A stretch of DNA of 62,946 nt, counting the filler, from Anaerolineae bacterium (GTDB taxonomy: Bacteria > Chloroflexota > Anaerolineae > B4-G1 > DUEL01): the NCBI GenBank assembly GCA_041082215.1. It is 6 parts of 6 records of this genome, joined end to end, with 100 filler letters (N's around TTAATTAATTAA, not from the genome) between each part and the next. Parts side by side here need not be neighbours in the genome. Positions count along the whole stretch, not along the records: positions 53,460 to 57,952 come from JBDOIF010000119.1; 5 more parts are not named here. One strand, 5' to 3'. Every line of letters starts with the position of its first letter. Position 1 is the stretch's first letter. Positions 3,865-60,787 of the stretch are shown piece after piece. Made by a program: the position numbers and the translations under genes. The notes beneath the pieces are model-generated. The model was not told the origin of the DNA, did no database searches, and worked only from the letters and a program-made list of their open reading frames with translations.

Positions 3865-4800
3865 TCAGCGGACCGTCTCCACCGCTGTGAAAAAAGTGCG
3901 GGCTGCGCCGGCCTCCGTCAACGCCGCCTCCACCTCGTCCGCCAGGCCCATCTCCACAAGGGCGACCACGTTGCCGCCCCTCCCGGCGCCGGAGAGCTTG
4001 GCCCCCAGCGCCCCGGCCATCCGGGCCGCTTCGACCAGCCCATCCAGCTCGGGGGAAGAGACCCCCATTTCCTGCAGGAGTTCATGGTTCCGATCCATCA
4101 ACATCCCCAGCTCGTCGGGGTCCCCCTCCTCGATCGCCCTCCGGGCATCCTCCACCAGCTCACCGATCTGGTCAAAGAGAAAGTCATAGTGAGCTGGCTC
4201 GGCCTCCCACCGACGCCGCACTGCCTCCACCACCCGACGGGTAGGGCTGGGGATGCCGGTATCGGCGATGAGCAGGTGGAGCGGCTCCCCCACGCGCAGC
4301 GGTTCCGGCGGCTCTCCCTGGACAAAATAGACGGGCCGCTCGTAGGCGATGACGGTGTTGTCTATGCCGCTGGGGGTGCCATGGTGGAGCTTTTCCACCT
4401 CAAAGACGAGCTGGCTGACCTCGGGCGGGGAAAGCTCTGCCCCGACGAACCCGGCCAGCGCACGGACGATGGCCGCAGAGACCGCTGCGCCGCTCCCCAT
4501 CCCCCCGGCGATGGGGATGGTGGAGGTGAGGGTGAGGACAGCGTCCGGTTCATCTGCCTCCAGGTGGGCCAGGGTGAGCCGGGCGATGGCCGCCAGCGGG
4601 TCGTCCCCAGGGGCATCCCCCAGGCGGATGCTCCGGTTCAGGTCGAGGGCCACCAGCGTAAGGCCGCTCCCCGGCGGCACGGCCTCCACCCTCGCCGTGG
4701 CCCGCACCCGGGAGACCGGTACGGCAATGGCCGGCCGCCCGTAGACCACAGCGTGCTCCCCCAACAGGATCACCTTTCCCGAAGCAGATGCATGAACCAT
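3865..4800 (-). CDS. mvk: Mevalonate kinase (GHMP family)
   Basis: GKVILLGEHAVVYGRPAIA, PIAGGMGSGAA, HGTPSGID, GAKLSGAGRGG. Confidence 0.92.
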   Translation of the reverse strand: MVHASASGKVILLGEHAVVYGRPAIAVPVSRVRATARVEAVPPGSGLTLVALDLNRSIRLGDAPGDDPLAAIARLTLAHLEADEPDAVLTLTSTIPIAGGMGSGAAVSAAIVRALAGFVGAELSPPEVSQLVFEVEKLHHGTPSGIDNTVIAYERPVYFVQGEPPEPLRVGEPLHLLIADTGIPSPTRRVVEAVRRRWEAEPAHYDFLFDQIGELVEDARRAIEEGDPDELGMLMDRNHELLQEMGVSSPELDGLVEAARMAGALGAKLSGAGRGGNVVALVEMGLADEVEAALTEAGAARTFFTAVETVR

Positions 4801-4810
4801 CGCCCCCCCA

Positions 4811-5686
4811 TCACCGAAAGAAGTACATAATCAACACGACCGCCAGCGCCCAGAGGAGCACCCCGGCCTGAAGAGGACGGTCCCGCAACACAATCTCCTC
4901 CGGCTCCCCTCCCAGCCCGCGGACCTGAACCAGGTACAGGTAGCGGAAGACGGCGTAGAGGACAAAGGGGGTGGTGAGCATCATCGTGTGGTTGGCCGGC
5001 AGGTTGGGGGCGGAAAAGGTGTAGAGGGCATAGGCAACCAGCGTGGCTGCGGTGACGATGGTGATGATCTGGTCCAGGAGCGGCAGGTTGTACTCCTGAA
5101 GGCTCTCCCGATGGGCGTTGGCGTTCTCCTTCAGCAGCACCAGCTCGTGACGGCGCTTGTTGAAGCCGATGAAGAGCGCCAGCAAGGCCATGCAGACATA
5201 CATCCAGGGGGAGAAACGTTCCGCCTCCACCAGTGGAACCCCCGCCGCCACCCGCATCACGAACCCGGCGGCGATGGTCAGCACGTCAATGATAACCAGG
5301 TTTTTGAGCAGGAAGGAATAGGCAACCTGGAGCAGGAGGTAACCCAGGAGAACCCCGCCGAAAAGGGAGTTGAGCCAGAAGCCGGCGGGGAGGCTCACCA
5401 GCGGGATCAGGATGGCTGCGGTGAGAGCCACACCGGTCGAGAGCTGACCGGAGGGGATGGGCCGGTTCCGCTTGCGTGGGTGTTGCCGGTCCTTCTCCAC
5501 ATCCACCAGATCGTTGATGATGTACACCGTTCCGGAGACCAGACACAGGAGGACAAAGCCGGCCACCGTCCGTGAGAGGTAAGTAAGGTTGAAAAGCTTG
5601 ACGTCGAAGACAAGAGGGGCAAACACGAAGACATTCTTTAGCCACTGCTTGGGACGCATCGTTTTGAGCAGAGCAATGAACCCCAC
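4811..5686 (-). CDS. UbiA-family prenyltransferase (decaprenyl-phosphate phosphoribosyltransferase-like)
   Basis: RPKQWLKN, YIINDLVDVEKDRQHPRKRNRPIPSG, KRRHEL, multiple TM helices. Confidence 0.85.
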   Translation of the reverse strand: MGFIALLKTMRPKQWLKNVFVFAPLVFDVKLFNLTYLSRTVAGFVLLCLVSGTVYIINDLVDVEKDRQHPRKRNRPIPSGQLSTGVALTAAILIPLVSLPAGFWLNSLFGGVLLGYLLLQVAYSFLLKNLVIIDVLTIAAGFVMRVAAGVPLVEAERFSPWMYVCMALLALFIGFNKRRHELVLLKENANAHRESLQEYNLPLLDQIITIVTAATLVAYALYTFSAPNLPANHTMMLTTPFVLYAVFRYLYLVQVRGLGGEPEEIVLRDRPLQAGVLLWALAVVLIMYFFR

Positions 5687-9497: not shown

Positions 9498-11930
9498 TCA
9501 GACATTCCGCAGCCGCAAGCTGTTGGTCACCACCGTGACGCTGCTTGTCGCCATCGCAAAGGCAGCCAGCACCGGATGGAGCTGCCGGAGGATTTCCGGC
9601 ACCACGGGGAACGGATAGAGCACACCGGCCGCCACCGGGATGAGAATGACATTATAGAAAAAGGCCCAGAAGAGATTTTGCTTGATGACCCGCATCGTGG
9701 CCCGGCTGAGAGCCAGCGCCCGGGGGACGGACCGCAGGTCGCCCCGCATCAATGTCACGTCGGCCGTCTCCATCGCCACATCGGTGCCGGTGCCCAGGGC
9801 AATCCCCACATCCGCCCGGGCCAGCGCCGGCGCATCGTTGATGCCATCGCCGACCATCGCCACCAGACGGCCCCCCTCCTGCAGCCGCCCTACCTCCTCC
9901 GCTTTGTCGGCCGGGAGCACCCCGGCCACCACCCGATCTATCCCCACCTGGCGGGCGATGGCCTCCGCCGTCCGCCGGTTGTCGCCGGTGAGCATCACCA
10001 CCTCCAGCCCCAGGCGATGAAGCTCGGCAACCGCCTCTACGGACCCCTCCTTCAGGGCGTCGGCGATCCCCAGCAGGCCAGCCGCCTCTCCATCCACGGC
10101 CACCGCCACGACTGTCCTTGCCAACCCCCGCAGACGCTCCACCTCGCCGACCAGGCCGTCCAGCCCAACCCCCTCCCCCTCGACCCACTCCGGCTTCCCC
10201 ACCAGGACCCGGCGCCCCTCGACCGTGGCCCGGACCCCCCTGCCGGGGATCGCCTCGAATTCCTCCGGGTCAGCCAGAGGAACGGCCCGCGCCTCCGCCT
10301 CGGCCACCACAGCCTCCCCCAGCGGGTGCTCTGACCCCCGCTCGGCGGAGGCCGCCCAGCGCAGGAGGGTTTCGGGATGCCCGGCATCTGAAACCACCAC
10401 ATCGGTGACCTCCGGCCTGCCCTTCGTCAGCGTGCCGGTCTTATCCAGGACGACCACCTCCAGCCGGTGGGCGGTCTCCAGCGCCGCGCTGTTTTTGAAG
10501 AGGATGCCCATCTCCGCTCCCCGACCCGTACCGACCATGATGGCGGTAGGGGTGGCCAGCCCCAGGGCGCAGGGGCAGGCGATGACCAGCACAGCCACCA
10601 GCCGGATCATCGCCGCCGTGAAGTCGCCGCCCACCCCCCACCAGACGGCAAAGGTGAGCAGGGCGACGCCGATAACCACCGGCACAAAGACCCCTGCCAC
10701 CCGGTCGGCGAGCCGCTGGATGGGGGCCTTGCTTCCCTGCGCCTCCCGCACCAGCCGGATGATCTGGGCCAGGGCTGTCTCCGCCCCCACCCGCGTCGCC
10801 TCGAACCGCAACAGCCCCTGCCGGTTGACCGTCGCGCCGATCACCCTGTCCCCCGGTCCCTTGTCCACCGGCATCGGTTCGCCGGTGAGCATGCTCTCGT
10901 CCACCGACGAACGGCCCTCCACCACCACCCCGTCCACCGGAATCCGCTCGCCGGGGCGGACCACCACCAGGTCCCCCACCCGGACCTGGCCCACCGGCAC
11001 ATCCATTTCCACCCCGTCCCGCACCACCCGGGCGGTTTTGGGGGCCAATCCCATCAGCTTCCTGATCGCCGCGCCGGTCTGCCCCTTGGCCCGCGCCTCA
11101 AGCAGCTTGCCCAGCTTGATCAGCGTCACGATGACCGCCGAGGTCTCAAAATAGACGTGGTGCCCCGCTGCTGGAAAGAGGAGCACTGCCAGGCTGTAGA
11201 AATAGGCCACGGAGGAGCCCATCGCCACCAGCGTGTCCATGTTGGCGGTCCGGTTGCGCAGGGCATAGTAGGCCCCCACGTAGTAGTCCCAGCCGGTGTA
11301 GAACTGGACCGGCGTGGCGAGGGCCAGGAAGAACCAGTTGAGCCAGGGGCCGTGGGACCAGGCCCCCAGCAGGCCGAGGTCACGGGCCATGCTGAGGATG
11401 AAGAGGGGAAGGGAGAAAAGTACACCGACCCAGAACTTGCGGGTCTGATCGGCGATCTCGGCCTGCCGGGCCTTCTCCTCTACATCCTCCATCTCTTCCG
11501 GAGTGGCGGCCTGGATCACGCCGTAGCCAGCTTCCTCCACAGCGCGGACCATTCCGGCGACCGTCGCCACGCCGGGCACGTACTCCACAGCCGCCCGCTC
11601 GGTGGCGAAGTTGACCGTTGCCTGGACCACGCCGGGGAGCCGGTTGAGGGTCCGCTCGACGGTAAGGGCGCAGTTGGCGCAGGTCATTCCGGTGATGGGG
11701 AGCTCGACCCGCGCTGTCACCACGTCGTACCCCGCCTCCCGCACCCGCTCTACCAGCTCGGCAGGATGGATCAGCGCCGGGTCGAAGACCACCGCGGCCT
11801 CCTCGGTGGCAAAATTGACCACTGCCTCGGCGACCCCTTCGGCCTTCTTCAGGCTGCGCTCGATGGTCAGGGCACAGTTAGCGCATGTCATGCCGGTGAC
11901 CGGCAGGGTAAGGCGGGTTTGGGTGGGCAA
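9498..11930 (-). CDS. copA: Copper-translocating P1B-type ATPase
   Basis: Two GMTCANC HMA domains, [35 protein letters not shown] and MATSS motifs; TTG start after GGAGG. Confidence 0.92.
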
Positions 11931-11944
11931 GCAGGCCTCCTTAT

Positions 11945-11996
11945 TGGGTGACTCGGTGACTCGGTGACTGGGTGATTGGGTGATTGGGTGATTGGG
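11945..11996. repeat. Octamer tandem array (GGGTGAYT / CGGTGACT)
   Basis: About six imperfect 8-nt units between copZ and copA. Confidence 0.85.
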
Positions 11997-11998
11997 GG

Positions 11999-12202
11999 CT
12001 AGGCAGGTGGGTAGTTGATCTCGGTGAGGGTGGCGACGATCTGCTCCCAGGTCGCCGGGGGCTCCCACTCGACGGTGACCTGCTTGCTTTCCACCTCTCC
12101 CTCGACCCGCTTCACCCCCTCCAGCGCCCCCAGCTCCCGCCGGATGGTCATCACGCAGTGATGACAACTGATGTTTGGCACCCGAAAGGTCTTGCTCTCC
12201 AT
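11999..12202 (-). CDS. copZ: Copper chaperone (HMA domain)
   Basis: 67 aa with [11 protein letters not shown], immediately upstream of copA. Confidence 0.85.
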
Positions 12203-12299
12203 AATTTCACCCCTTATCAGAGGGACGAAAGCCACTTCACTGCCTGGACGTCCACTCCCATCTCCTACCCTCATCACAGAGGTCCGGATTTCGAAGATG

Positions 12300-21404: not shown

Positions 21405-21504
21405 NNNNNNNNNNNNNNNNNNNNNNNNNNNNNNNNNNNNNNNNNNNNTTAATTAATTAANNNNNNNNNNNNNNNNNNNNNNNNNNNNNNNNNNNNNNNN
21501 NNNN
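21405..21504. other. Artificial contig linker
   Basis: N run + TTAATTAATTAA + N run. Confidence 0.98.
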
Positions 21505-40918: not shown

Positions 40919-41018
40919 NNNNNNNNNNNNNNNNNNNNNNNNNNNNNNNNNNNNNNNNNNNNTTAATTAATTAANNNNNNNNNNNNNNNNNNNNNNNNNN
41001 NNNNNNNNNNNNNNNNNN
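40919..41018. other. Artificial contig linker
   Basis: N run + TTAATTAATTAA + N run. Confidence 0.98.
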
Positions 41019-42537: not shown

Positions 42538-43704
42538 CTAGATCCCCAGCACGATCACGGTGCCGACCTGCATCAGGTCGCCCCAGGCCTGGGCGACGCC
42601 CCGTTTTGGCTGGCCCGGCACCTGGCGGGCGCCCGCCTCGCCGCGCAACTGCCAGAAGAGCTCGGCCACCTTCATCAGGCCAGCGGCGGCGATGGGGTTG
42701 CCCACGCCCAAAAGGCCCCCGCTGGGGCAGACCGGCAGGTCACCATCCCGCTGGGTGATGCCCAGGGCTGTGGCCTCCGGCGCCTTGCCCCTGTCGAACA
42801 GCATCAGCCCCTCCAGATGGTGGAGTTCCTTATAGTCGAAGGGGTCGTAGGGTTCGGCGATGTGGATCTGCTTGCGCGGCTCGGTGATGCCGGCCATCTT
42901 ATAGGCCATCCGCGCCGCCTCCTCCACGTAGGTGGGGTAGGAGAGGTCCCGGCTGGTCCAGTAGGCGGTGTCGAGGCTCCAGCCCACGCCCTCCACCCAG
43001 ACCGGCTTGTCGGTCACCCGGCGGGCGACATGCTCGGCGCACATCACCAGCGCCACCGCCCCATCGGTGACGGGGCTCACATCCAGCCGCTGCACGGGCC
43101 AGGCGAGCACCTCCGAATTAAGCACATCTTCCACCGTGATGTTCGGATCCCCCAGCAGCGCCGCCGGGTGGTCGGCCGCGTTCCGCTTGTTCTTTACCGA
43201 CACCAGAGCGATGTCCCGCTTGTCCAACCCGTACCGGCTCATATAGGCATTCATCTCCAGGGCGAAGATCCACAGGAGGTTCGGTCCCAGCGGCCGCTCG
43301 GTGGTGTGGTCGAAGATGGTCAGGAAGGCCCCTTGCGGGTGGGGCTGGCAGGAGGACATTTTCTCCTCGGCGACGACGAGGACGGTGTCGAAGAGGCCGC
43401 TGGCGACGTGGTACCAGCCCTGGATAGGGGCGAAGACCCCCGTGCCGCCGCCGACATAGCCACGGATGACGGGCTTGCCCCAGCCGCCAGCGCCATCGGA
43501 GAGGTATTCGCTCTTCATATGAACGCCGTCGAAAGCCTCTGGGGCGCTGTCTACGATCACGGCATCTATATCGTCCAGCGTCAGCTCGCAGGACTCCAGC
43601 GCCTTGCTGGCGGCCTCCCAGGCCAGTTCCTTGGCCGTCTCCTGGGCGCGGCGGACGAATCGGGTCATCCCCGCGCCGACAACTGCAACTCGATTTCGTC
43701 CCAT
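42538..43704 (-). CDS. Thiolase-superfamily (SCP2/Ltp-like) protein
   Basis: VAVVGAGMT, AEEKMS, SPVTDGAVA, AEPYDPF, PVCPSGGLLG. Confidence 0.85.
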   Translation of the reverse strand: MGRNRVAVVGAGMTRFVRRAQETAKELAWEAASKALESCELTLDDIDAVIVDSAPEAFDGVHMKSEYLSDGAGGWGKPVIRGYVGGGTGVFAPIQGWYHVASGLFDTVLVVAEEKMSSCQPHPQGAFLTIFDHTTERPLGPNLLWIFALEMNAYMSRYGLDKRDIALVSVKNKRNAADHPAALLGDPNITVEDVLNSEVLAWPVQRLDVSPVTDGAVALVMCAEHVARRVTDKPVWVEGVGWSLDTAYWTSRDLSYPTYVEEAARMAYKMAGITEPRKQIHIAEPYDPFDYKELHHLEGLMLFDRGKAPEATALGITQRDGDLPVCPSGGLLGVGNPIAAAGLMKVAELFWQLRGEAGARQVPGQPKRGVAQAWGDLMQVGTVIVLGI

Positions 43705-43714
43705 CGCCCGCCTC

Positions 43715-44866
43715 CTAATTGCTCAAGATCACGGCCGCGCCGCTGGTGGTGGGCACGCCGCGCCAGGCGAAGGCCAGCCCGGTCTCCACCCCTTCCAGCT
43801 GACGGTCGCCGGCCTCTCCCCGAAGCTGGAGCACCACCTCCAGCATACGGGCCAATCCCGTGCAGTCCAGCAGATGTCCCTCGCCCAGCGCACCGCCGGA
43901 GGGGTTCACCGGGAACTCTCCGGTCATTGCAGTGCCTCCCTCCAGGGTCCACATCCCCGCCTCCCCCGGCCGACAGAGCCCCAGAGCCTCCAGGTGCTGG
44001 AGTTCCTTGTAGGCGAAGGTGTCGTCCACTTCGGCGAAGTCAATCTCGTTGCGTGGGCTTCTGATCCCGGCGGTGCGATAGGCCATCTGCCCGGCCAGAT
44101 AGGCGTAGCCAGCCTGGCCCCAGGGGCGGCTTTCCAGCCAGAAGGTGTCGTTGGCCCAGCCGATGCCGCGGATCCAGATGGGGCGGTCGGTGAGGGCTCG
44201 GGCGGCCTCCCCCGAGGCCAGCACGAAGACCACCGCCCCGTCGGCGTGATCGGCGCAGGCCAGGCGGGTGAGGGGCTCCGCCACCGGCTCGGAGGCCAGC
44301 ACGTCGTCTATTGTGAGCTGGGCCCCGTAGCCGGCCAGGGGGTTGGTCAGCGCGTTGGCCCGGTTCTTGACCACCACCTGGGCGCAGGCCTCGATCGGCG
44401 TCCCCGACTCGGCCAGGTACCGCTGCATCTCCATCCCGGCGATGGCGTAAGGATGGAAGGCCAGCGGGCGGTTGAAGACGGGGTCCATCGCGTAGGCCAG
44501 GATATAGGGCAGGGTGAGGATGTTGGAGGCCTTGCTGTGGGCTTCGACCACCACAATGTCAAACTGACCGGTGAGGATCTGCATCACCGCTGCCGCGACG
44601 CCGTGGATGCCGTCCCCGGTGATGGTGTGGTTGGGACGGAGCGCCCCGCCCAGCTGGTCGGGCGTGTATTCATCGAAAATGCTGGTCCCTTCGTTGAAGT
44701 CCTCCGCCACAGTGACAAAGCTATCCACATCCCGACGGGGGTCCACGCCGGCATCCTCATAGGCGCGGACGGCGGCTTCATATATCATTTCTTTGTACGA
44801 GACATCGGGTGTGATGGAGCGGAAGGGGCTCCACCCCACCCCCACGATGGCCACTTCTCGGATCAT
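43715..44866 (-). CDS. Thiolase-superfamily (SCP2/Ltp-like) protein
   Basis: VAIVGVG, ADGAVVFVL, AEVDDTFAY, PVNPSGGALGEGH. Confidence 0.85.
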   Translation of the reverse strand: MIREVAIVGVGWSPFRSITPDVSYKEMIYEAAVRAYEDAGVDPRRDVDSFVTVAEDFNEGTSIFDEYTPDQLGGALRPNHTITGDGIHGVAAAVMQILTGQFDIVVVEAHSKASNILTLPYILAYAMDPVFNRPLAFHPYAIAGMEMQRYLAESGTPIEACAQVVVKNRANALTNPLAGYGAQLTIDDVLASEPVAEPLTRLACADHADGAVVFVLASGEAARALTDRPIWIRGIGWANDTFWLESRPWGQAGYAYLAGQMAYRTAGIRSPRNEIDFAEVDDTFAYKELQHLEALGLCRPGEAGMWTLEGGTAMTGEFPVNPSGGALGEGHLLDCTGLARMLEVVLQLRGEAGDRQLEGVETGLAFAWRGVPTTSGAAVILSN

Positions 44867-52140: not shown

Positions 52141-53328
52141 GTGACGGGACGGAACATCATTGTGACGGAGGCCACAGGTCAGTATATCGAGGACCTGCCG
52201 GTCGAGATCGTCGAGCGGAAGGGGATCGGCCACCCCGATAGCCTCTGCGACGGGATCGCTGAACGCATCTCCGTGGAATACTCCCGCTGGTGTCAGGAGC
52301 ACTTCGGCACCCTCCTGCACCACAATTTCGACAAGGTGCAACTGGTCGCCGGAGAGGTGGAGGTGGGTTACGGCGGCGGCTATATGATCCGCCCCATCCG
52401 CATCCAGATCGCCGGGCGGGGAACGCCGGCCTACAAGGGGCAGAAGATCCCTCTGGACACGATCGCCATCGAAGCGGCCCGGACGCACATCCGGGAGACG
52501 ATGCGTCACCTGGACCCCGATCGGCACATGGTCATTGACTCCTTTGTGGGCCGGGGGGCGGAGGAGCTGGCCTATGTGGTGGATCGAGTCACGGCCAACG
52601 ACACCAGCTTCGGCGTGAGCCACTGGCCCCGCTCCGGCCTGGAAAGGACGGTCTACGAGACCTCCCGGTACATCAACTTCCAGTTGATTGACCGGTTCCC
52701 CATCGGCGAGGACGTGAAGGTGATGGGGGCACGACACGACGACCAGATGGTCCTTACCGTCGCTCTCCCCTTCATCGCCGGACAGGTCCACGACGCGGCC
52801 GAGTACGTCGAGCTGCGGCGAGCTGCGCAGGAGGCGATCCAGACCTTTGCTGCGGAGCTGGATAGCCGCAAGGTCATCGTTCACGTCAACACCGCCGACG
52901 ACGTGGAGGCGGGTGCGGTTTACCTGACCCTCACAGGGACCTCGGCGGAGATGGGGGACGACGGCGCGGTGGGGCGGGGCAACCGGGTCAACGGGTTGAT
53001 CACCCCCTTCCGGTCCGCCAGCCTGGAGGCGGCCTGTGGCAAGAACCCCATCTCCCACGTGGGCAAGGTCTACAACGTCCTGGCGATGCTGGCAGCACGG
53101 GCTATCGTGGAGCGGGTGCCCACGGTGAAGGAAACGACGGTCTACCTGCTTTCCCAGATCGGCGCGCCGCTCGACCGGCCGCTGGTGGCGACGGCCTGCG
53201 TCCGCCCCGTCTCCGGCTCCCTCACCTCCAGCATCCGGGCGGACGTGCAGGCGGTGCTGGACGAATACCTGGCTCAGGTCCATACGGTGCGGGACCGGAT
53301 CCTCAGTCGGGAATTTCCGCTGTTTTGA
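52141..53328 (+). CDS. mat: Archaeal-type methionine adenosyltransferase
   Basis: [65 protein letters not shown]. Confidence 0.92.
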
Positions 53329-53359: not shown

Positions 53360-53459
53360 NNNNNNNNNNNNNNNNNNNNNNNNNNNNNNNNNNNNNNNNN
53401 NNNTTAATTAATTAANNNNNNNNNNNNNNNNNNNNNNNNNNNNNNNNNNNNNNNNNNNN
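53360..53459. other. Artificial contig linker
   Basis: N run + TTAATTAATTAA + N run. Confidence 0.98.
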
Positions 53460-53789
53460 ATCTTCACCCGAACGTACGATTTCATCACCTGGCTTCTGCC
53501 GGTGACCAACCACTTCCCCCGCGCGCATCGCTTCACCTTCACCCGCCGGCTGCTGGATGCCGCCTTCGATCTGCTGGAGCGGCTGGAGGAGGCCAATCAC
53601 CGCCAGGGGAAGCTTCGTCTCGCGCTGCTGAAGGAGGCGGACATCTATCTGGATCGGGTGCGGCTATACCTGCGAATGGCCACACGCTGGGAGTGGCTCT
53701 CTGCCGGTCAGTACCGTCATGCTGCGGAGATGGTGACGGAGATCGGTCGCCTTCTCGGAGGCTGGCAGAAGGTCACCCATGAAGAATAG
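53460..53789 (+). CDS. avd: DGR accessory variability determinant Avd (5' truncated)
   Basis: IFTRTYDFITWLLPVTNHFPRAHRF...LYLRMA..WEWLSAGQY......EIGRLLGGWQK, directly upstream of the TR. Confidence 0.9.
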   Translation: MFTRTYDFITWLLPVTNHFPRAHRFTFTRRLLDAAFDLLERLEEANHRQGKLRLALLKEADIYLDRVRLYLRMATRWEWLSAGQYRHAAEMVTEIGRLLGGWQKVTHEE

Positions 53790-53868
53790 GAGGCAACTCG
53801 CGGCCCAACCATCGGGCCGCCGTTGCGGGGGCGGGCCGGCAACTGCCGCCGGGCTGTGGAAGGGTGGG

Positions 53869-53990
53869 CCCGCGCGGTGCGCGGCGGCTCCTTCAACAAC
53901 AATCGCCGCAACGTGCGCTGCGCCTACCGCAACAGGGACAACCCCGACAACTTCAACAGGAATCAGGGGTTTCGTCCGGTGGCGGCCACG
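53869..53990 (+). repeat. DGR template repeat (TR)
   Basis: 122-nt ungapped match to the VR; nine AAC/AAT triplets in the target reading frame. Confidence 0.95.
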
Positions 53991-54182
53991 CTTTTCCGGT
54001 ATGCCGGAACTGCCCGGCGGGGAGGGCAACAACCAGAGTTGCCCCTGCCTTCCGGGCCGAGGCGAGAAAAACGGCGCGGCCCGCCCCTGGCCGGCGGGCC
54101 CTTCCCCCGGGATGGGATCCGCCGGGCGAATACGGAAGCGCCCTGCCCCCTGGGTTCATCTCTGGGGCTGGGCACGCCGCAG

Positions 54183-54215
54183 AGGTGCCAGGCGCCTCGA
54201 AGGCGCCTGGCACCT
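54183..54215. repeat. Perfect 14-bp hairpin upstream of RT
   Basis: AGGTGCCAGGCGCC-TCGAA-GGCGCCTGGCACCT. Confidence 0.8.
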
Positions 54216-54226
54216 GGCCCCAGCAA

Positions 54227-55279
54227 ATGTATACTCAACTCTGTTCGTGGGATAATCTGCTCCTGTCCTATCGCCGCGCCAGCAAGGGAAAGCGTGGCCA
54301 TCCATCCGTGGCCGCCTTCGAGTACCGCCTGGAGACTAATCTGCTCCAACTCCAACAGGAGCTGGCGACGAAGCGGTATCAGCCAGGCCCTTACAACTCC
54401 TTCTACATCCACGATCCCAAGCGCCGCCTCATCTCCGCTGCCCCCTTTCGGGATCGCGTGGTCCATCACGCCCTCTGTAACGTCATCGAACCTCTCTTCG
54501 AGCACCGCTTCATCTTCGATTCCTATGCCAACCGGGTGGGTAAGGGCACCCACCGGGCACTCGATCGGTGCCAGCAGTTTGCCCGCCGCTTCCGTTACGT
54601 GCTCCAATGTGATGTGCGCCAGTTTTTCCCCGCCATTGACCACGCCATCCTCAGGGAAACCCTGGGCCGCGTCATCGCTGACTCCAACGTGATGTGGCTG
54701 GTGGGCCGCATTCTGGAGAGCGGCGTTGGTGTGCTGAGCGAGGAGTACGAGATGGTCTACTTCCCCGGCGACGATCTCTTCGCCGCCCTCCGCCCCCGCG
54801 GCCTGCCCATCGGCAACCTGACCAGCCAGTTCTGGGCCAACTGCTACCTGGACCCCTTCGACCACTTCGTGAAGCGGGAACTGCGGTGCAAGGGGTATCT
54901 GCGATATGTAGACGATTTCCTGCTCTTCGCCGATGACAAGGCAACACTGTGGGCCTGGCAGGAGGCGGTGATGGCCCGGCTGGCCCAATTGCGACTCACG
55001 CTCCACGAAGAACGGGCACACCCTCGTCCGGTAACCGAGGGCATCCCCTTCCTGGGCTTCGTGGTCTATCCCACCCACCGGCGGTTAAAGCGGCGGAAGG
55101 GGATCGCCTACCGGCGGAGGCTAAAAGGGCTGCTGCGAGCATTCGCAGCGGGCCAGGTCTCGCTAGAACAGGTGGACGCTTCCGTTCAGGGATGGATCAA
55201 CCACATCCGGTACGGTGACACCTGGGGGTTGAGGCGGGCAGTATTTAACAGCCTGCCCGTCCATCCCCCTCCGGTATGA
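54227..55279 (+). CDS. DGR reverse transcriptase
   Basis: PKRRLISAAPFRDRVVHHAL, GKGTH, CDVRQFFPAIDH, GLPIGNLTSQFWAN, YLRYVDDF, FLGF; 350 aa with no maturase or endonuclease tail. Confidence 0.95.
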   Translation: MYTQLCSWDNLLLSYRRASKGKRGHPSVAAFEYRLETNLLQLQQELATKRYQPGPYNSFYIHDPKRRLISAAPFRDRVVHHALCNVIEPLFEHRFIFDSYANRVGKGTHRALDRCQQFARRFRYVLQCDVRQFFPAIDHAILRETLGRVIADSNVMWLVGRILESGVGVLSEEYEMVYFPGDDLFAALRPRGLPIGNLTSQFWANCYLDPFDHFVKRELRCKGYLRYVDDFLLFADDKATLWAWQEAVMARLAQLRLTLHEERAHPRPVTEGIPFLGFVVYPTHRRLKRRKGIAYRRRLKGLLRAFAAGQVSLEQVDASVQGWINHIRYGDTWGLRRAVFNSLPVHPPPV

Positions 55280-55325
55280 TCAGACGGCCGGCACCCGCTA
55301 CGACCAGAGGGACCAGAGACCAGAG

Positions 55326-57614
55326 CTATACCGGGGCCGCCACCGGACGAAACCCCAGCCTCCTGAGGAAGACGTCGGGGAAGTCCCCGCCGCGGTAGGC
55401 GCAGCGCACGAAGCGGCGACCGAGGTTGAAGGAGCCGCCGCGCACCGCGCGGGGGGCCGCCCCCTCCAGGCCGTTATCTTCCCTCTCCAGGTAGCCCCCG
55501 TAATCCCCTACCCACCTGGTGGCGCACCACTCCCACACGTTGCCGGCCATATCCGCCGCCCCGTAGGGGCTGTCCCCGTCGGGGGAGTACTGACCCACCG
55601 GGGTCGGGCGGCCAGGGCCGCCCTCGGCGCTGTTGCACCGCCTGGGATCCCATTCATCCCCCCAGGGGTACTTCCGGCCGTATTCGCCCCGCGCCGCCTT
55701 CTCCCATTCCGCCTCGGTGGGTAACCGGATCTGCCATCCCTCGGGCAGGGGCGCAGCGCGCTGCGCCCCTGCGGCCTCCACCGGCTGCCGCAACCGCTCC
55801 GTGAGCCAGCGACAGTAGGCCACTGCCTCGTACCAGGAGATGCCAACCACCGGTTGCAGGGGGTTATCAAACCCCTTATCGCGCCAGTAACGAGGTTCGG
55901 TCCAGCGCTCCTTCTCCTTCGCTGCCCATCCAGCCTCCGTCCAGTATCTGCGCTCCTTGTACCCACCTGCTTCCACGAAACGGCGGAACTCCTGGTTGGT
56001 CACCGGATAGCGGCCGATCCAGTATTCATAGGGAATGTCATAAGTGTGCCGTGGTTTCTCGTTGTCATAAGCGTCCGGGTCGTCGTCCGCGCTGCCCATC
56101 AGGAAGGGGCCGGCCGGGACGCGGACGAACTGGTCCATCACGAACTCGCCAGGGGACTCCGGCTGCCGCTCCAGCAGGCGGGGCGCAACCCGCCTCGGGG
56201 TGGGCTCCTCCACCTCCCCCACCGGCGGGGCGGTGAGGTGGATGTAAAGGTGGAGCTCCTCCGGCCCGATCTCGAATCCCTCCAGCTGGGCCAGCACGCC
56301 CTGCAGCCGCCGGTTCTCGCCGATCATGGCCTTCAGTTGGGGGTCAATGGGAGGTCCTCCCTCGTCGGCTTCCCTCCCCCGTTTTATGAACGCGATCCCC
56401 TCCCGGATGCGCTGGGGCCGCTCCCTCTCCGGCAATTGCTCCAGCCAGGCCCGGAACGTCTCCCCGCCTGCCTCTGTGAGCACCAGCCACAGATGGAAGT
56501 GGTCCCGATTCGCTCTCTCCGCCTGCCCGGAATTGAGCAGGAGCGCCCACTGTAGCTCGGCATAGTTGATAAAGGTCTTGATGCGGCGGGGGTTGGTCTC
56601 CCCCCCCCGGGTCAGCAGCCTGAGGCTTTCCACCAGCGATGGGTTGGCTTCCGCCAGCCGCTGTTCGCCGGCCCGGAGACCGTCCAGGAAGTCAGCCAGG
56701 CTCTGCTCCCCCTCCGGCTGCAGGGGCGGCAGATCGAACCGGACCTGGATGATCTTATCCAGATACCGCTGGCTCTCCCGCCGCAGTCCCTCGAAACTCC
56801 TGTAGTGGGCAGCCACCGCCTCCTCCACCACCTTCCGCGAGGCTCCGATCACGAAGACCGTGCCGGGCCTGTCCATCATCAGTTTGATCGCCTCCAGCAC
56901 CTGGACCGTCTTTTCCGGCAGGCAGCGGTCCAGGTCGTCTATAAAGATGGTCAGCACGCCGCGGCGGTCGTCAATGCATCGGTCGGGTGCATCGTCCCGG
57001 TAGAGCCACCAGCCCACCAGCCGGTCGAAGACCTCCAAGAACTCGTCCAGGAAAGCCAGGTTGGCCCTGAAGCGGGATTCGGCCTCAAAGCGGGTCAGGT
57101 CCAAGTCAATCTTGCCCAGGGAGAAGACCTGGGAGAGGGTACTGAGGACGGCCTCGGGAACCCGGAGTTGCGTTTGCTTGGGATCGGAGAGGGCAGCGTA
57201 GAGTCTGGTGATGGTTCCATCCCGCCGCATCTCCCGGAGCACTTCCTCCACCAGGGCGACGAAGAGAGCCTCCTCCCGGCTGTACTTCCAGGCGTTGAAC
57301 CAGACAGTGCGTACGGGACGGAACTGCTCATCGTCAGGCCACTTCTCCCCTTCTGCGATGAATCCAGGCCGCTTCTTGCGGTCGGTCGTCTGGTCCAGAT
57401 AGGCCCGCATCGCCCGCATCAGCGTCGTCTTGCCCGATCCCCACTCTCCGTGGATGCCGATGGTGAGGGGAGTGCAGGTATGCCTGGCGGCGATGATGCG
57501 GGCGAAGGTGCGGGCGTAGCTGTCAAACTGGAAGTAAGAAGGCTCTTCGGGCCGCAGCGGCTGGTCGTTGAAGATGAGCGGGGTGATCCAGCGCGGTTTG
57601 CTTTTCTCTGCCAT
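55326..57614 (-). CDS. DGR target: KAP-family P-loop NTPase fused to an FGE-sulfatase-type (CLec) domain
   Basis: GEWGSGKT, FNAWKY, FIDDLDRC, YLDKIIQ, NPRRIK; then FLMGS, YPVTN, PVVGISWYEA, RLPTEAEWEKAARG, DMAGNVWEW, VRGGSF...LGFRPV; ATG after GGAGG. Confidence 0.93.
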   Translation of the reverse strand: MAEKSKPRWITPLIFNDQPLRPEEPSYFQFDSYARTFARIIAARHTCTPLTIGIHGEWGSGKTTLMRAMRAYLDQTTDRKKRPGFIAEGEKWPDDEQFRPVRTVWFNAWKYSREEALFVALVEEVLREMRRDGTITRLYAALSDPKQTQLRVPEAVLSTLSQVFSLGKIDLDLTRFEAESRFRANLAFLDEFLEVFDRLVGWWLYRDDAPDRCIDDRRGVLTIFIDDLDRCLPEKTVQVLEAIKLMMDRPGTVFVIGASRKVVEEAVAAHYRSFEGLRRESQRYLDKIIQVRFDLPPLQPEGEQSLADFLDGLRAGEQRLAEANPSLVESLRLLTRGGETNPRRIKTFINYAELQWALLLNSGQAERANRDHFHLWLVLTEAGGETFRAWLEQLPERERPQRIREGIAFIKRGREADEGGPPIDPQLKAMIGENRRLQGVLAQLEGFEIGPEELHLYIHLTAPPVGEVEEPTPRRVAPRLLERQPESPGEFVMDQFVRVPAGPFLMGSADDDPDAYDNEKPRHTYDIPYEYWIGRYPVTNQEFRRFVEAGGYKERRYWTEAGWAAKEKERWTEPRYWRDKGFDNPLQPVVGISWYEAVAYCRWLTERLRQPVEAAGAQRAAPLPEGWQIRLPTEAEWEKAARGEYGRKYPWGDEWDPRRCNSAEGGPGRPTPVGQYSPDGDSPYGAADMAGNVWEWCATRWVGDYGGYLEREDNGLEGAAPRAVRGGSFNLGRRFVRCAYRGGDFPDVFLRRLGFRPVAAPV
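55332..55453 (-). repeat. DGR variable repeat (VR)
   Basis: Last ~40 codons of the target; 19 mismatches to the TR, 18 at TR adenines. Confidence 0.95.
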
Positions 57615-57782
57615 CGAGCCCCCTCCTAAAGTTGTTTCAGGTGGCGGAGCTTGCGCGGTTTCTTCACGTACCGTTTTGAAGTATAATCGTCTCGAAGAAT
57701 CCGCGCAAATCCGCTCATTCGTGTCATCTGGCCCATTCGTGGTATTCGTGATCCGCAAGCGCTTAGTTAGAGGGATGGGAAG

Positions 57783-57952
57783 ATGCCGTTTCTGGAAATC
57801 CGTCGCCTGCACAAATCCTACCCCGACGGCTGGACCCTTTCCGACGTCAGTTTCTCCGTCGAGGAGGGGGAGATCCTCTGCCTCCTGGGCCCCTCCGGCT
57901 GCGGCAAGACGACCCTGCTGCGGCTCATCGCCGGGCTGGAGGTGCCGGACGG
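57783..57952 (+). CDS. ABC transporter ATP-binding protein (3' truncated)
   Basis: [20 protein letters not shown]. Confidence 0.88.
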
Positions 57953-58052
57953 NNNNNNNNNNNNNNNNNNNNNNNNNNNNNNNNNNNNNNNNNNNNTTAA
58001 TTAATTAANNNNNNNNNNNNNNNNNNNNNNNNNNNNNNNNNNNNNNNNNNNN
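57953..58052. other. Artificial contig linker
   Basis: N run + TTAATTAATTAA + N run. Confidence 0.98.
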
Positions 58053-58484: not shown

Positions 58485-59006
58485 GTGGATTACGAGGAGT
58501 GGCTGGTGACAGTCCCAGAGGAGATCAGGGCCGATTCTTTATGGAGAGTAACGGCCTACCGTCTGGCCCTGTTTTTGGGTGACCTGGGATGGCACGACAC
58601 AGCGAGGCTGGTCGAGGACCGGCGAATGGTCAGCCTGGCCGATCAGTTGTACCGGGCTTTGGGATCCATCAGCGCCAATCTGGCTGAAGGATACTCACGA
58701 GGGACTGGCAGGGACCGTGCCCGCTTCTACGAATACGCCCTTGGTTCCGACCGAGAAAGTCGGGATTGGTACTTCAAGGCCCGGCACATTCTTGGAGAGA
58801 CCGTGTTCCGGCACCGTCTACAATTGCTCACGCGGCTGATCCAGCTCATTCTGGTTATGATCCCCCAACAACGGGGGCGCTCCCTGCGGGAGCCGCTGGC
58901 CACCTATGGGCCGTGTGCCGACCAGGCAGAAATAGACAAGACTCATAGCGAGCTGGAAACCTCGCTCACCGCCCTACTCCACCATATCCCTCTCCCTGAC
59001 GCCTGA
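58485..59006 (+). CDS. Four-helix-bundle protein (23S rRNA IVS protein / bAvd-like superfamily)
   Basis: DQLYRALGSISANLAEGYSR...RFYEYALGSDRES motif; GGAGGAG RBS. Confidence 0.85.
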   Translation: MDYEEWLVTVPEEIRADSLWRVTAYRLALFLGDLGWHDTARLVEDRRMVSLADQLYRALGSISANLAEGYSRGTGRDRARFYEYALGSDRESRDWYFKARHILGETVFRHRLQLLTRLIQLILVMIPQQRGRSLREPLATYGPCADQAEIDKTHSELETSLTALLHHIPLPDA

Positions 59007-60687: not shown

Positions 60688-60787
60688 NNNNNNNNNNNNN
60701 NNNNNNNNNNNNNNNNNNNNNNNNNNNNNNNTTAATTAATTAANNNNNNNNNNNNNNNNNNNNNNNNNNNNNNNNNNNNNNNNNNNN
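60688..60787. other. Artificial contig linker
   Basis: N run + TTAATTAATTAA + N run. Confidence 0.98.

Follow-up and report, generated by a model that had tools for sequence, protein, structure and literature searches.

The stretch of DNA analysed here (the window, 62,946 nt) comes from a metagenome-assembled genome (MAG) of an Anaerolineae bacterium that originates from hot-spring metagenomes (genome G000; 174 contigs, 3.53 Mb, 96% complete). Its subject is a minus-strand gene coding for a 762-residue protein in which an N-terminal KAP-family P-loop NTPase is joined to a C-terminal domain with the C-type-lectin (CLec) fold of formylglycine-generating enzymes (FGE). We are near certain that this gene, target 1 hereafter, is a target of a diversity-generating retroelement (DGR) and has this KAP NTPase-FGE/CLec architecture; judged by sequence, it is one of the two targets of a complete chromosomal DGR. 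The accessory gene avd, the template repeat (TR) and the reverse transcriptase (RT) gene adjoin target 1 and run convergently with it, and together with the variable repeat (VR) inside target 1 all parts lie within 4.2 kb (Table 1). The window consists of six contigs (C47, C48, C51, C52, C53 and C55) joined by 100-nt spacers composed of 44 N + TTAATTAATTAA + 44 N, so that any gene neighbourhood extending across a spacer is not real, and the true neighbourhood of target 1 is C52 alone (53460-57952, 4493 nt). The apparent housekeeping neighbours to the left of 53460 and to the right of 57952 were rejected as an artefact of concatenation, and so was a direct-repeat family (D1), which is made up of the spacers.

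Table 1. Features of the DGR locus on C52, its second target on C90 and the spacers of the window; positions count along the window unless a contig is named.
Feature	Position	Strand	Basis or remark
avd, DGR accessory four-helix-bundle protein	53460..53789	+	Pfam bAvd, NCBIfam; about 4 N-terminal residues lost at contig start
TR, 122 nt, 25 adenines, RAVRGGSFNNNRRNVRCAYRNRDNPDNFNRNQGFRPVAAT	53869..53990	+	Adenine-biased mismatches to VR1 and VR2
Non-coding TR-RT spacer, 236 nt	53991..54226	+	Between TR end and RT start codon
DGR RT, 350 aa, ATG 54227	54227..55279	+	Pfam RVT_1
Target 1, soluble KAP NTPase-FGE/CLec protein, 762 aa	57614..55326	minus	Open reading frame (ORF), Pfam, alignment, AlphaFold2 model
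KAP-family P-loop NTPase domain, residues 30-350	56565..57527	minus	Pfam KAP_NTPase PF07693
Helical domain, residues 351-461	56232..56564	minus	AlphaFold2 helices at 342-460
Flexible linker, residues 462-489 (~28 residues)	56148-56231	minus	Predicted local distance difference test (pLDDT) <50
FGE-type CLec fold, predicted non-catalytic, residues 494-758	55341..56135	minus	Pfam FGE-sulfatase
VR1, residues 721-761 (last 41 codons)	55332-55453	minus	Inverted match to TR
Divergent intergenic region	57615..57782	.	Contains GGAGG ribosome-binding site of target 1
ATP-binding cassette (ABC) transporter ATPase gene, 5' end; right boundary of putative DGR island	57783..57952	+	ATG at C52:4324; continues on C123
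Target 2, ~1000-aa NACHT-FGE protein, membrane-anchored	G000:C90:86-3193	minus	VR2 matches TR; 2 N-terminal transmembrane (TM) segments
Five spacers	21405-21504, 40919-41018, 53360-53459, 57953-58052, 60688-60787		Join the six contigs

The assignment of the gene as a DGR target rests on a self-comparison of the window, in which the sole strong inverted match is between a 122-nt segment upstream of the RT gene and the end of target 1. The two copies differ at 19 positions, and 18 of these fall on adenines of the upstream copy (25 A in 122 nt; binomial P 6e-12), which identifies that copy as the TR and the gene end as VR1; of the 97 non-adenine positions, 96 agree between the two copies. The changed codons of VR1 are 731, 732, 735, 742, 743, 745, 748, 750, 752, 753 and 761. 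The RT matches RVT_1 (E 4.4e-16) and carries both YVDD and the heptapeptide IGNLTSQ, an instance of [ILV]GxxxSQ, the signature motif of DGR RTs. The spacer between the TR and the RT gene presumably belongs to the TR transcript, as we assume from DGRs in general. Avd matches Pfam bAvd (PF22296) with E 3.5e-21 over profile positions 5-105 of 107 and the NCBIfam equivalog DivGenRetAVD with 97.8 bits against a cut-off of 80. A second Avd-like gene in the window (58485-59006, plus strand) encodes a 173-residue four-helix-bundle protein of the 23S_rRNA_IVP family (PF05635 E 5e-12), a family with five matches in the genome; it was rejected as the accessory gene of this DGR since it sits on C53 and the true avd is that of C52.

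The ORF of target 1 covers 55326..57812 and would give 828 residues from a GTG (57812) or 762 from an ATG (57614), and the frame remains open up to the contig end at 57952, where the extra stretch is made of intergenic DNA and the start of the divergent ABC gene. The ATG is favoured because a GGAGG lies 9 nt upstream of it in an AT-richer stretch, because M1 is near-invariant across 116 aligned homologues, because the match to the KAP profile sets in at residue 30, and because the divergent ABC ATPase gene already begins at 57783. Profile searches, which the preliminary description of this gene had proposed for both of its domains, placed each above its cut-off, with 126.5 bits against 20 for KAP_NTPase (E 1.6e-36) and 203 bits against 23.3 for FGE-sulfatase (PF03781, E 7.6e-60). 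The same description had called the N-terminal part a KAP NTPase and the C-terminal part an FGE-type CLec domain ending in the VR, with a helical linker between them, and all three assignments hold. The NTPase motifs that it quoted are present in the translation (Walker A GEWGSGKT, Walker B FIDDLDRC, YLDKIIQ and NPRRIK), and residues G59, G61, K62, T63, D226, D227, D229, N341, P342, R343 and K346 are invariant in the 116 sequences. An AlphaFold2 model built on the same alignment (mean pLDDT 84.7) comprises a P-loop core, a helical domain to residue 460 followed by the low-confidence linker, and a confidently modelled lectin domain.

KAP proteins in many cases have TM helices inserted into the P-loop domain, which the PF07693 profile does not require. 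The model of target 1 shows a helical, soluble insert that separates Walker A from Walker B, and over the whole 762-residue protein no TM-like segment was found, the highest Kyte-Doolittle mean in 19-residue windows being 1.01. This agrees with the earlier statement that the protein has no TM helix, and we file it on these grounds as a soluble member of the KAP profile. A two-copy prediction of residues 1-465 gave no answer (score 0.01) and speaks neither for nor against self-association.

A comparison of the lectin domain with known folds using VIA-align returned EgtB (Z 29.1), the Treponema denticola protein TvpA (2y3c; Z 25.8 over 223 residues), Mtd (1yu0; Z 13.4) and TaqVP (5vf4; Z 12.2). 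The match to 2y3c is also found by sequence and includes the VR (E 1.1e-8). TvpA, Mtd and TaqVP share with target 1 the FGE-type or CLec fold and the position of the VR at the C-terminal end, but they are found at surfaces or in phage tails and have no NTPase, whereas target 1 is predicted to be cytoplasmic and is fused to a KAP domain. The VR takes the position at which FGE enzymes have their catalytic cysteines: in the alignment, NLGRRF of the VR and a gap stand opposite the LCHESYC segment that contains the Cys pair of the T. curvata FGE, and the pair is absent from target 1. Enzyme equivalog models stay far under their cut-offs, with 141 bits against 360 for EgtB and 123.5 against 420 for SenA. 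The sequence thus assigns the lectin domain as a binding module and not an enzyme.

For the NTPase and helical part (residues 1-480), the search for a solved relative by sequence returned nothing below E 0.018. The best structural match is RdrA of the RADAR system (8fnt_B; Z 15.8, root mean square deviation 5.2, 323 residues aligned), followed by ORC/Cdc6 (Z 13-15), the plant NLR ZAR1 (Z 12) and BrxC (Z 11). As described by Duncan-Lowey et al. 2023 (PMC9994260), RdrA is an ATPase that forms heptameric rings and has, besides a helical insertion, an alpha-helical lobe at its C-terminus. Target 1 resembles it in the ATPase core, the helical insertion and the alpha-helical lobe but has only 14% sequence identity to it; no RdrB partner was seen for target 1, though no search for one was made, and ring formation would be an analogy only. 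The PADLOC profiles of QatA, PDC-S20 and PifA match the NTPase part partially (E 4e-29 to 5e-23), and NCBIfam QatA gives 119.3 bits against a cut-off of 600, again over the NTPase part only. Membership of QatA or PifA was rejected, as the profile matches are partial and below cut-off and none of the partner genes qatBCD is present in the neighbourhood.

The same TR has a second match in the genome, VR2 (C90:92-213), at the end of target 2. It differs from the TR at 16 positions, 15 of them adenines (P 6e-10), and VR1 and VR2 together have 21 of the 25 TR adenine sites changed. The last 55 nt compared between the two targets, downstream of and into the end of the VR, are identical. Judged by sequence, one TR serves both the soluble KAP-FGE protein and the membrane-anchored NACHT-FGE protein.

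Overlaps between contig ends allow the two targets to be placed relative to each other. C52 ends in the same 147 nt with which C123 starts (100% identity), and on C123 the ABC ATPase gene continues; the far end of C90 has an exact 147-nt overlap with the end of C66, a contig that encodes the solute-binding protein and the permease of an ABC transporter. The resulting order is C66, C90 reversed, an unclosed gap, C52 and C123. Thirty relatives were searched for the ATPase and nine loci were returned. In five of these the permease orthologue sits next to that of the ATPase (gaps of 28, 29, 46, 47 and ~112 nt), and in one the two are ~0.84 kb apart; in the other three the permease was not seen within the short flank covered. 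We infer from this an insertion of at least 7.5 kb, made up of the DGR with both its targets, that separates permease from ATPase in an ABC operon; the gap between C90 and C52 falls inside this putative island.

The genome has three DGR-type RTs (on C52, C154 and C119) and five ORFs with an FGE domain. Four NTPase-FGE proteins were identified, namely KAP-FGE on C52 and C118 and NACHT-FGE on C90 and C154. C154 (4904 nt) bears an RT, avd and a TR (1540-1659). Its NACHT-FGE target has TM segments as well as a VR (4719-4838), and all 19 of 19 mismatches between this TR and VR are at adenines; C119 (1370 nt) has an RT and a partial avd only. The second KAP-FGE paralogue (766 aa; C118:31219-33522, locus L021:9669-11969, minus strand) is 31% identical to target 1 and sits at a contig end, and no TR for it was found in the assembly.

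Some further genes and repeats were recorded in their own right. An ORF on C111 (positions 2-982, locus L025), truncated where the contig begins, encodes an Mrr-type restriction-endonuclease domain fused to an FGE domain; given its C-terminal K and Q residues it is probably not DGR-diversified. It is followed by a 1072-residue Ser/Thr kinase-TPR-SH3 protein (C111:784-4002). Elsewhere in the window, an S-adenosylmethionine synthetase of archaeal type is encoded at 52141-53328 on the plus strand (PF01941 E 1e-142), in a bacterial MAG, and two pairs of internal or tandem divergent repeats were seen, 11585-11702 with 11789-11906 (73% identity, inside a long minus-strand ORF at 9498-12206) and 42619-43210 with 43796-44384 (58% identity).

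Target 1 belongs to a large family. Among 7999 candidates scored, 2098 proteins are homologues at E<=1e-5; all 120 of these that were listed have both PF07693 and PF03781, most are 714-873 residues long, and the named sources are mostly Chloroflexi or Anaerolineae MAGs. The nearest homologue among the matches listed is 81% identical. For the alignment used above, 116 of the 120 were taken and the short or odd rows P0045, P0058, P0108 and P0118 were left out. It shows no variation in Walker A, Walker B and NPRR.K, and in the VR columns an invariant scaffold (R737, R741, G754) alternates with hypervariable residues, which stand at the codons changed in VR1. In the nine columns templated by AAY codons, 1018 of 1032 residues can be encoded by NNY codons and 14 cannot; in 31 other variable columns of the same domain, 1013 of 3467 residues are not NNY-encodable. 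By this near-exclusive use of NNY-encodable residues the whole family bears the signature of DGR diversification.

The fused gene is found in 36 of the 80 best loci of species-representative genomes, including Nitrospirota, Desulfobacteraceae, Brocadia and Latescibacterota. Six homologue loci hold an adenine-biased TR/VR pair of their own, and one of the six, in a Desulfobacteraceae MAG (locus L048), repeats the set of KAP-FGE, avd, RT and NACHT-FGE with two VRs and one TR. Full-length KAP-FGE was found in 2 of 30 relatives (45% and 42% identity), a patchy distribution of the kind expected for an accessory gene. The NTPase part had no match in 50,697 phage records (tblastn, E<=1e-5), and on plasmids it gave 118 generic KAP hits at no more than 33% identity, none of them covering 80% of the query.

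The preliminary description had put target 1 forward as a candidate for an undescribed system, and this is not supported, given the 2098 homologues and the earlier literature. DGR targets combining NTPase and FGE-sulfatase domains were already listed by Wu et al. 2018 (PMC5758913). Kaur, Burroughs, Iyer and Aravind 2021 (eLife, PMC8195603) described DGR-linked NTPase-FGS systems in which a KAP ATPase may displace the STAND NTPase, and proposed them as hypermutating intracellular receptors with a possible analogy to the receptors of adaptive immunity. Dore et al. 2024 (PNAS, PMC10907252) count the KAP NTPase among the NTPases of DGR targets, with a KAP_NTPase PF07693 category in supplementary file 6. 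Going by these papers, neither the architecture nor the idea of an antigen sensor is new.

The systems of Kaur 2021 and the locus described here have in common a central NTPase (NACHT, MNS, nSTAND1 or KAP) followed by a C-terminal FGS domain. In both, the RT and the four-helix accessory protein are encoded close by or at another place in the genome, and one genome holds several paralogues with more than one type of NTPase, here two KAP-FGE and two NACHT-FGE. Theirs differ in typically having an N-terminal effector-associated domain (EAD) or effector, with copies of the EAD fused to separate effectors, a trait that is frequent and not obligatory according to the papers; target 1 is without an N-terminal EAD or effector and without a linked effector gene. 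It appears to represent the 'NTPase-FGS antigen sensor' model of Kaur 2021 and Dore 2024 in a minimal, adaptor-less form. The targets of clade 5D in multicellular bacteria (Dore 2024) are also alike, with two targets per DGR, a single CLec domain in each, a central NTPase with KAP as a variant, a cytoplasmic or membrane-anchored location and several related DGRs per genome; the likeness is drawn from the target architecture, and the host here is an uncultured MAG. PifA, QatA and the single-gene KAP systems share the N-terminal KAP P-loop domain and a variable C-terminal module. According to a preprint (10.1101/2025.10.07.681051), single-gene KAP NTPases with varied C-terminal regions block phage in a manner dependent on Walker B, as in EF_KAP, whose defence needs this motif; EF_KAP has TM helices, whereas target 1 has none and its C-terminal module is a DGR-diversified lectin.

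On this basis we propose that target 1 works as a defence sensor. Mutagenic retrohoming would keep generating new lectin binding faces, and a given variant would bind a cytoplasmic non-self macromolecule, most likely a protein or glycoconjugate of a phage or mobile element. As with STAND NTPases and RADAR RdrA, binding of the ligand may be coupled to the NTPase through an ATP-dependent switch or the assembly of a ring, and a protective response would follow. Since target 1 has neither an effector nor an adaptor domain, and its neighbours include no conserved partner, the output would be either intrinsic, by sequestering of the ligand or ATP-driven assembly, or exerted through an unlinked partner. 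The link to defence draws on the profile matches to QatA, PDC-S20 and PifA, on RdrA as the best solved look-alike, on the phage-blocking single-gene KAP NTPases, and on the presence of three DGR RTs and four NTPase-FGE proteins of two NTPase classes in one genome, as in the systems of Kaur 2021. Taken as a whole, the statement that the gene is a DGR target of this architecture acting by such a mechanism is in our judgement probable, though not strongly so, and the mechanism is its uncertain part. The mutable receptor on an NTPase that the preliminary description proposed is the best-supported reading, and the immune function it attached to this receptor stays a proposal, here as in the literature.

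Several observations weigh against a role in defence or against continuing diversification. The real flanks are ABC-transporter genes and not a defence island. In a scan of 111 of the 154 neighbouring ORFs of 23 homologue loci (the outermost and smallest were dropped), no partner gene recurred except Avd and RT, and neighbours of defence type were sporadic (SLATT_2, SIR2 with nSTAND1, AAA_21/RloB with HD-CE, ParE and a methylase). The protein itself carries no effector domain, as had been noted before, and no EAD adaptor; its conserved N-terminus belongs to the KAP domain, whose profile match opens at residue 30. DGR parts occur in only 6 of the 22 homologue loci with 3 kb or more of flank to either side. 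In five genomes whose KAP-FGE gene has no DGR nearby, a search for bAvd gave two matches over the cut-off and one weaker match; comparison of these three loci with the VR of the KAP-FGE gene of the same genome brought up no adenine-biased TR, in assemblies that are incomplete. The published work reports neither a ligand nor an ATPase activity nor a phenotype for any protein of the NTPase-CLec type, and Dore 2024 describes CLec-STAND proteins as experimentally uncharacterised. Two-component genes beside some members of the family, moreover, would also fit a regulatory role.

Such a role would make target 1 a tunable sensor for regulation or kin recognition, in which an endogenous ligand or one from kin is bound and the NTPase feeds signalling for social or developmental control in a filamentous bacterium. 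On C118 the stop of the KAP-FGE gene and the start of the next gene downstream share 4 nt, and the product of that gene has a receiver domain and a degenerate GGDEF domain (SGGGRF). Locus L034 has a histidine kinase, two response regulators, KAP-FGE, RT and avd in one direction, and at L045 a hybrid histidine kinase lies upstream; the flanks of target 1 are housekeeping genes, and kin recognition is named as an alternative by Dore 2024. We nevertheless hold this explanation to be unlikely, for two-component genes are common and present in few of the 23 loci, the NTPase part is closest to defence ATPases (the QatA, PifA and PDC-S20 profiles and RdrA), and the distribution of the family among relatives is patchy in the manner of accessory genes. 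Within the defence reading, a stronger version is possible but seems to us doubtful: KAP-FGE proteins would be self-contained programmable receptors of a single chain that need no dedicated effector, whose lectin captures the invader and whose KAP ring, like that of RdrA, neutralises or reports it. In this genome the gene would be carried in a cassette of at least 7.5 kb together with its NACHT-FGE twin in the ABC operon.

Two other explanations concern the state of the locus and the chemistry of the lectin domain. Target 1 could be a relic, formerly diversified by an active DGR and now left with one fixed specificity, if it is functional at all. Most well-flanked homologues have no adjoining DGR, and no read-level heterogeneity of the VR was obtained: of six public runs, four were compared, all in assembled-contig form and hence uninformative on turnover, the sole variant over the VR (15 listed changes) being VR2 of C90, letter for letter, with no cover of VR1 itself in runs X2 and X3. 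Against this, Avd, TR, RT and VR are all intact, the identity of 96 out of 97 non-adenine positions argues for recent homing, and two VRs have been diversified independently from one TR, which makes a relic improbable. Lower still, and close to negligible, we put the reading as an enzyme of SUMF1/EgtB/PvdO type with an accessory NTPase. It would explain the names of homologues at NCBI and JGI ('SUMF1/EgtB/PvdO family nonheme iron enzyme', 'formylglycine-generating enzyme', 'iron(II)-dependent oxidoreductase') and the top fold matches to EgtB and FGE, but all equivalog models remain far under their cut-offs, the FGE Cys pair is replaced by hypervariable VR, and a site that is randomly rewritten cannot serve as a conserved active site.

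With defence sensing as the preferred reading, the locus adds a further instance and family statistics to a known kind of system, and not a new kind. What it contributes is the minimal form without adaptor or effector, the use of one TR for a KAP and a NACHT sensor, an apparent island in an ABC operon, and the NNY signature across the family. Being compact and soluble, with a confident model, target 1 is a reasonable candidate for biochemical and structural study of how a lectin domain is coupled to a KAP NTPase. If the self-contained receptor proposed for the family is true, one TR would programme a soluble and a membrane-bound sensor at once. Among bacterial proteins, the DGR-diversified NTPase-lectin proteins come nearest to a somatically hypermutating intracellular receptor.

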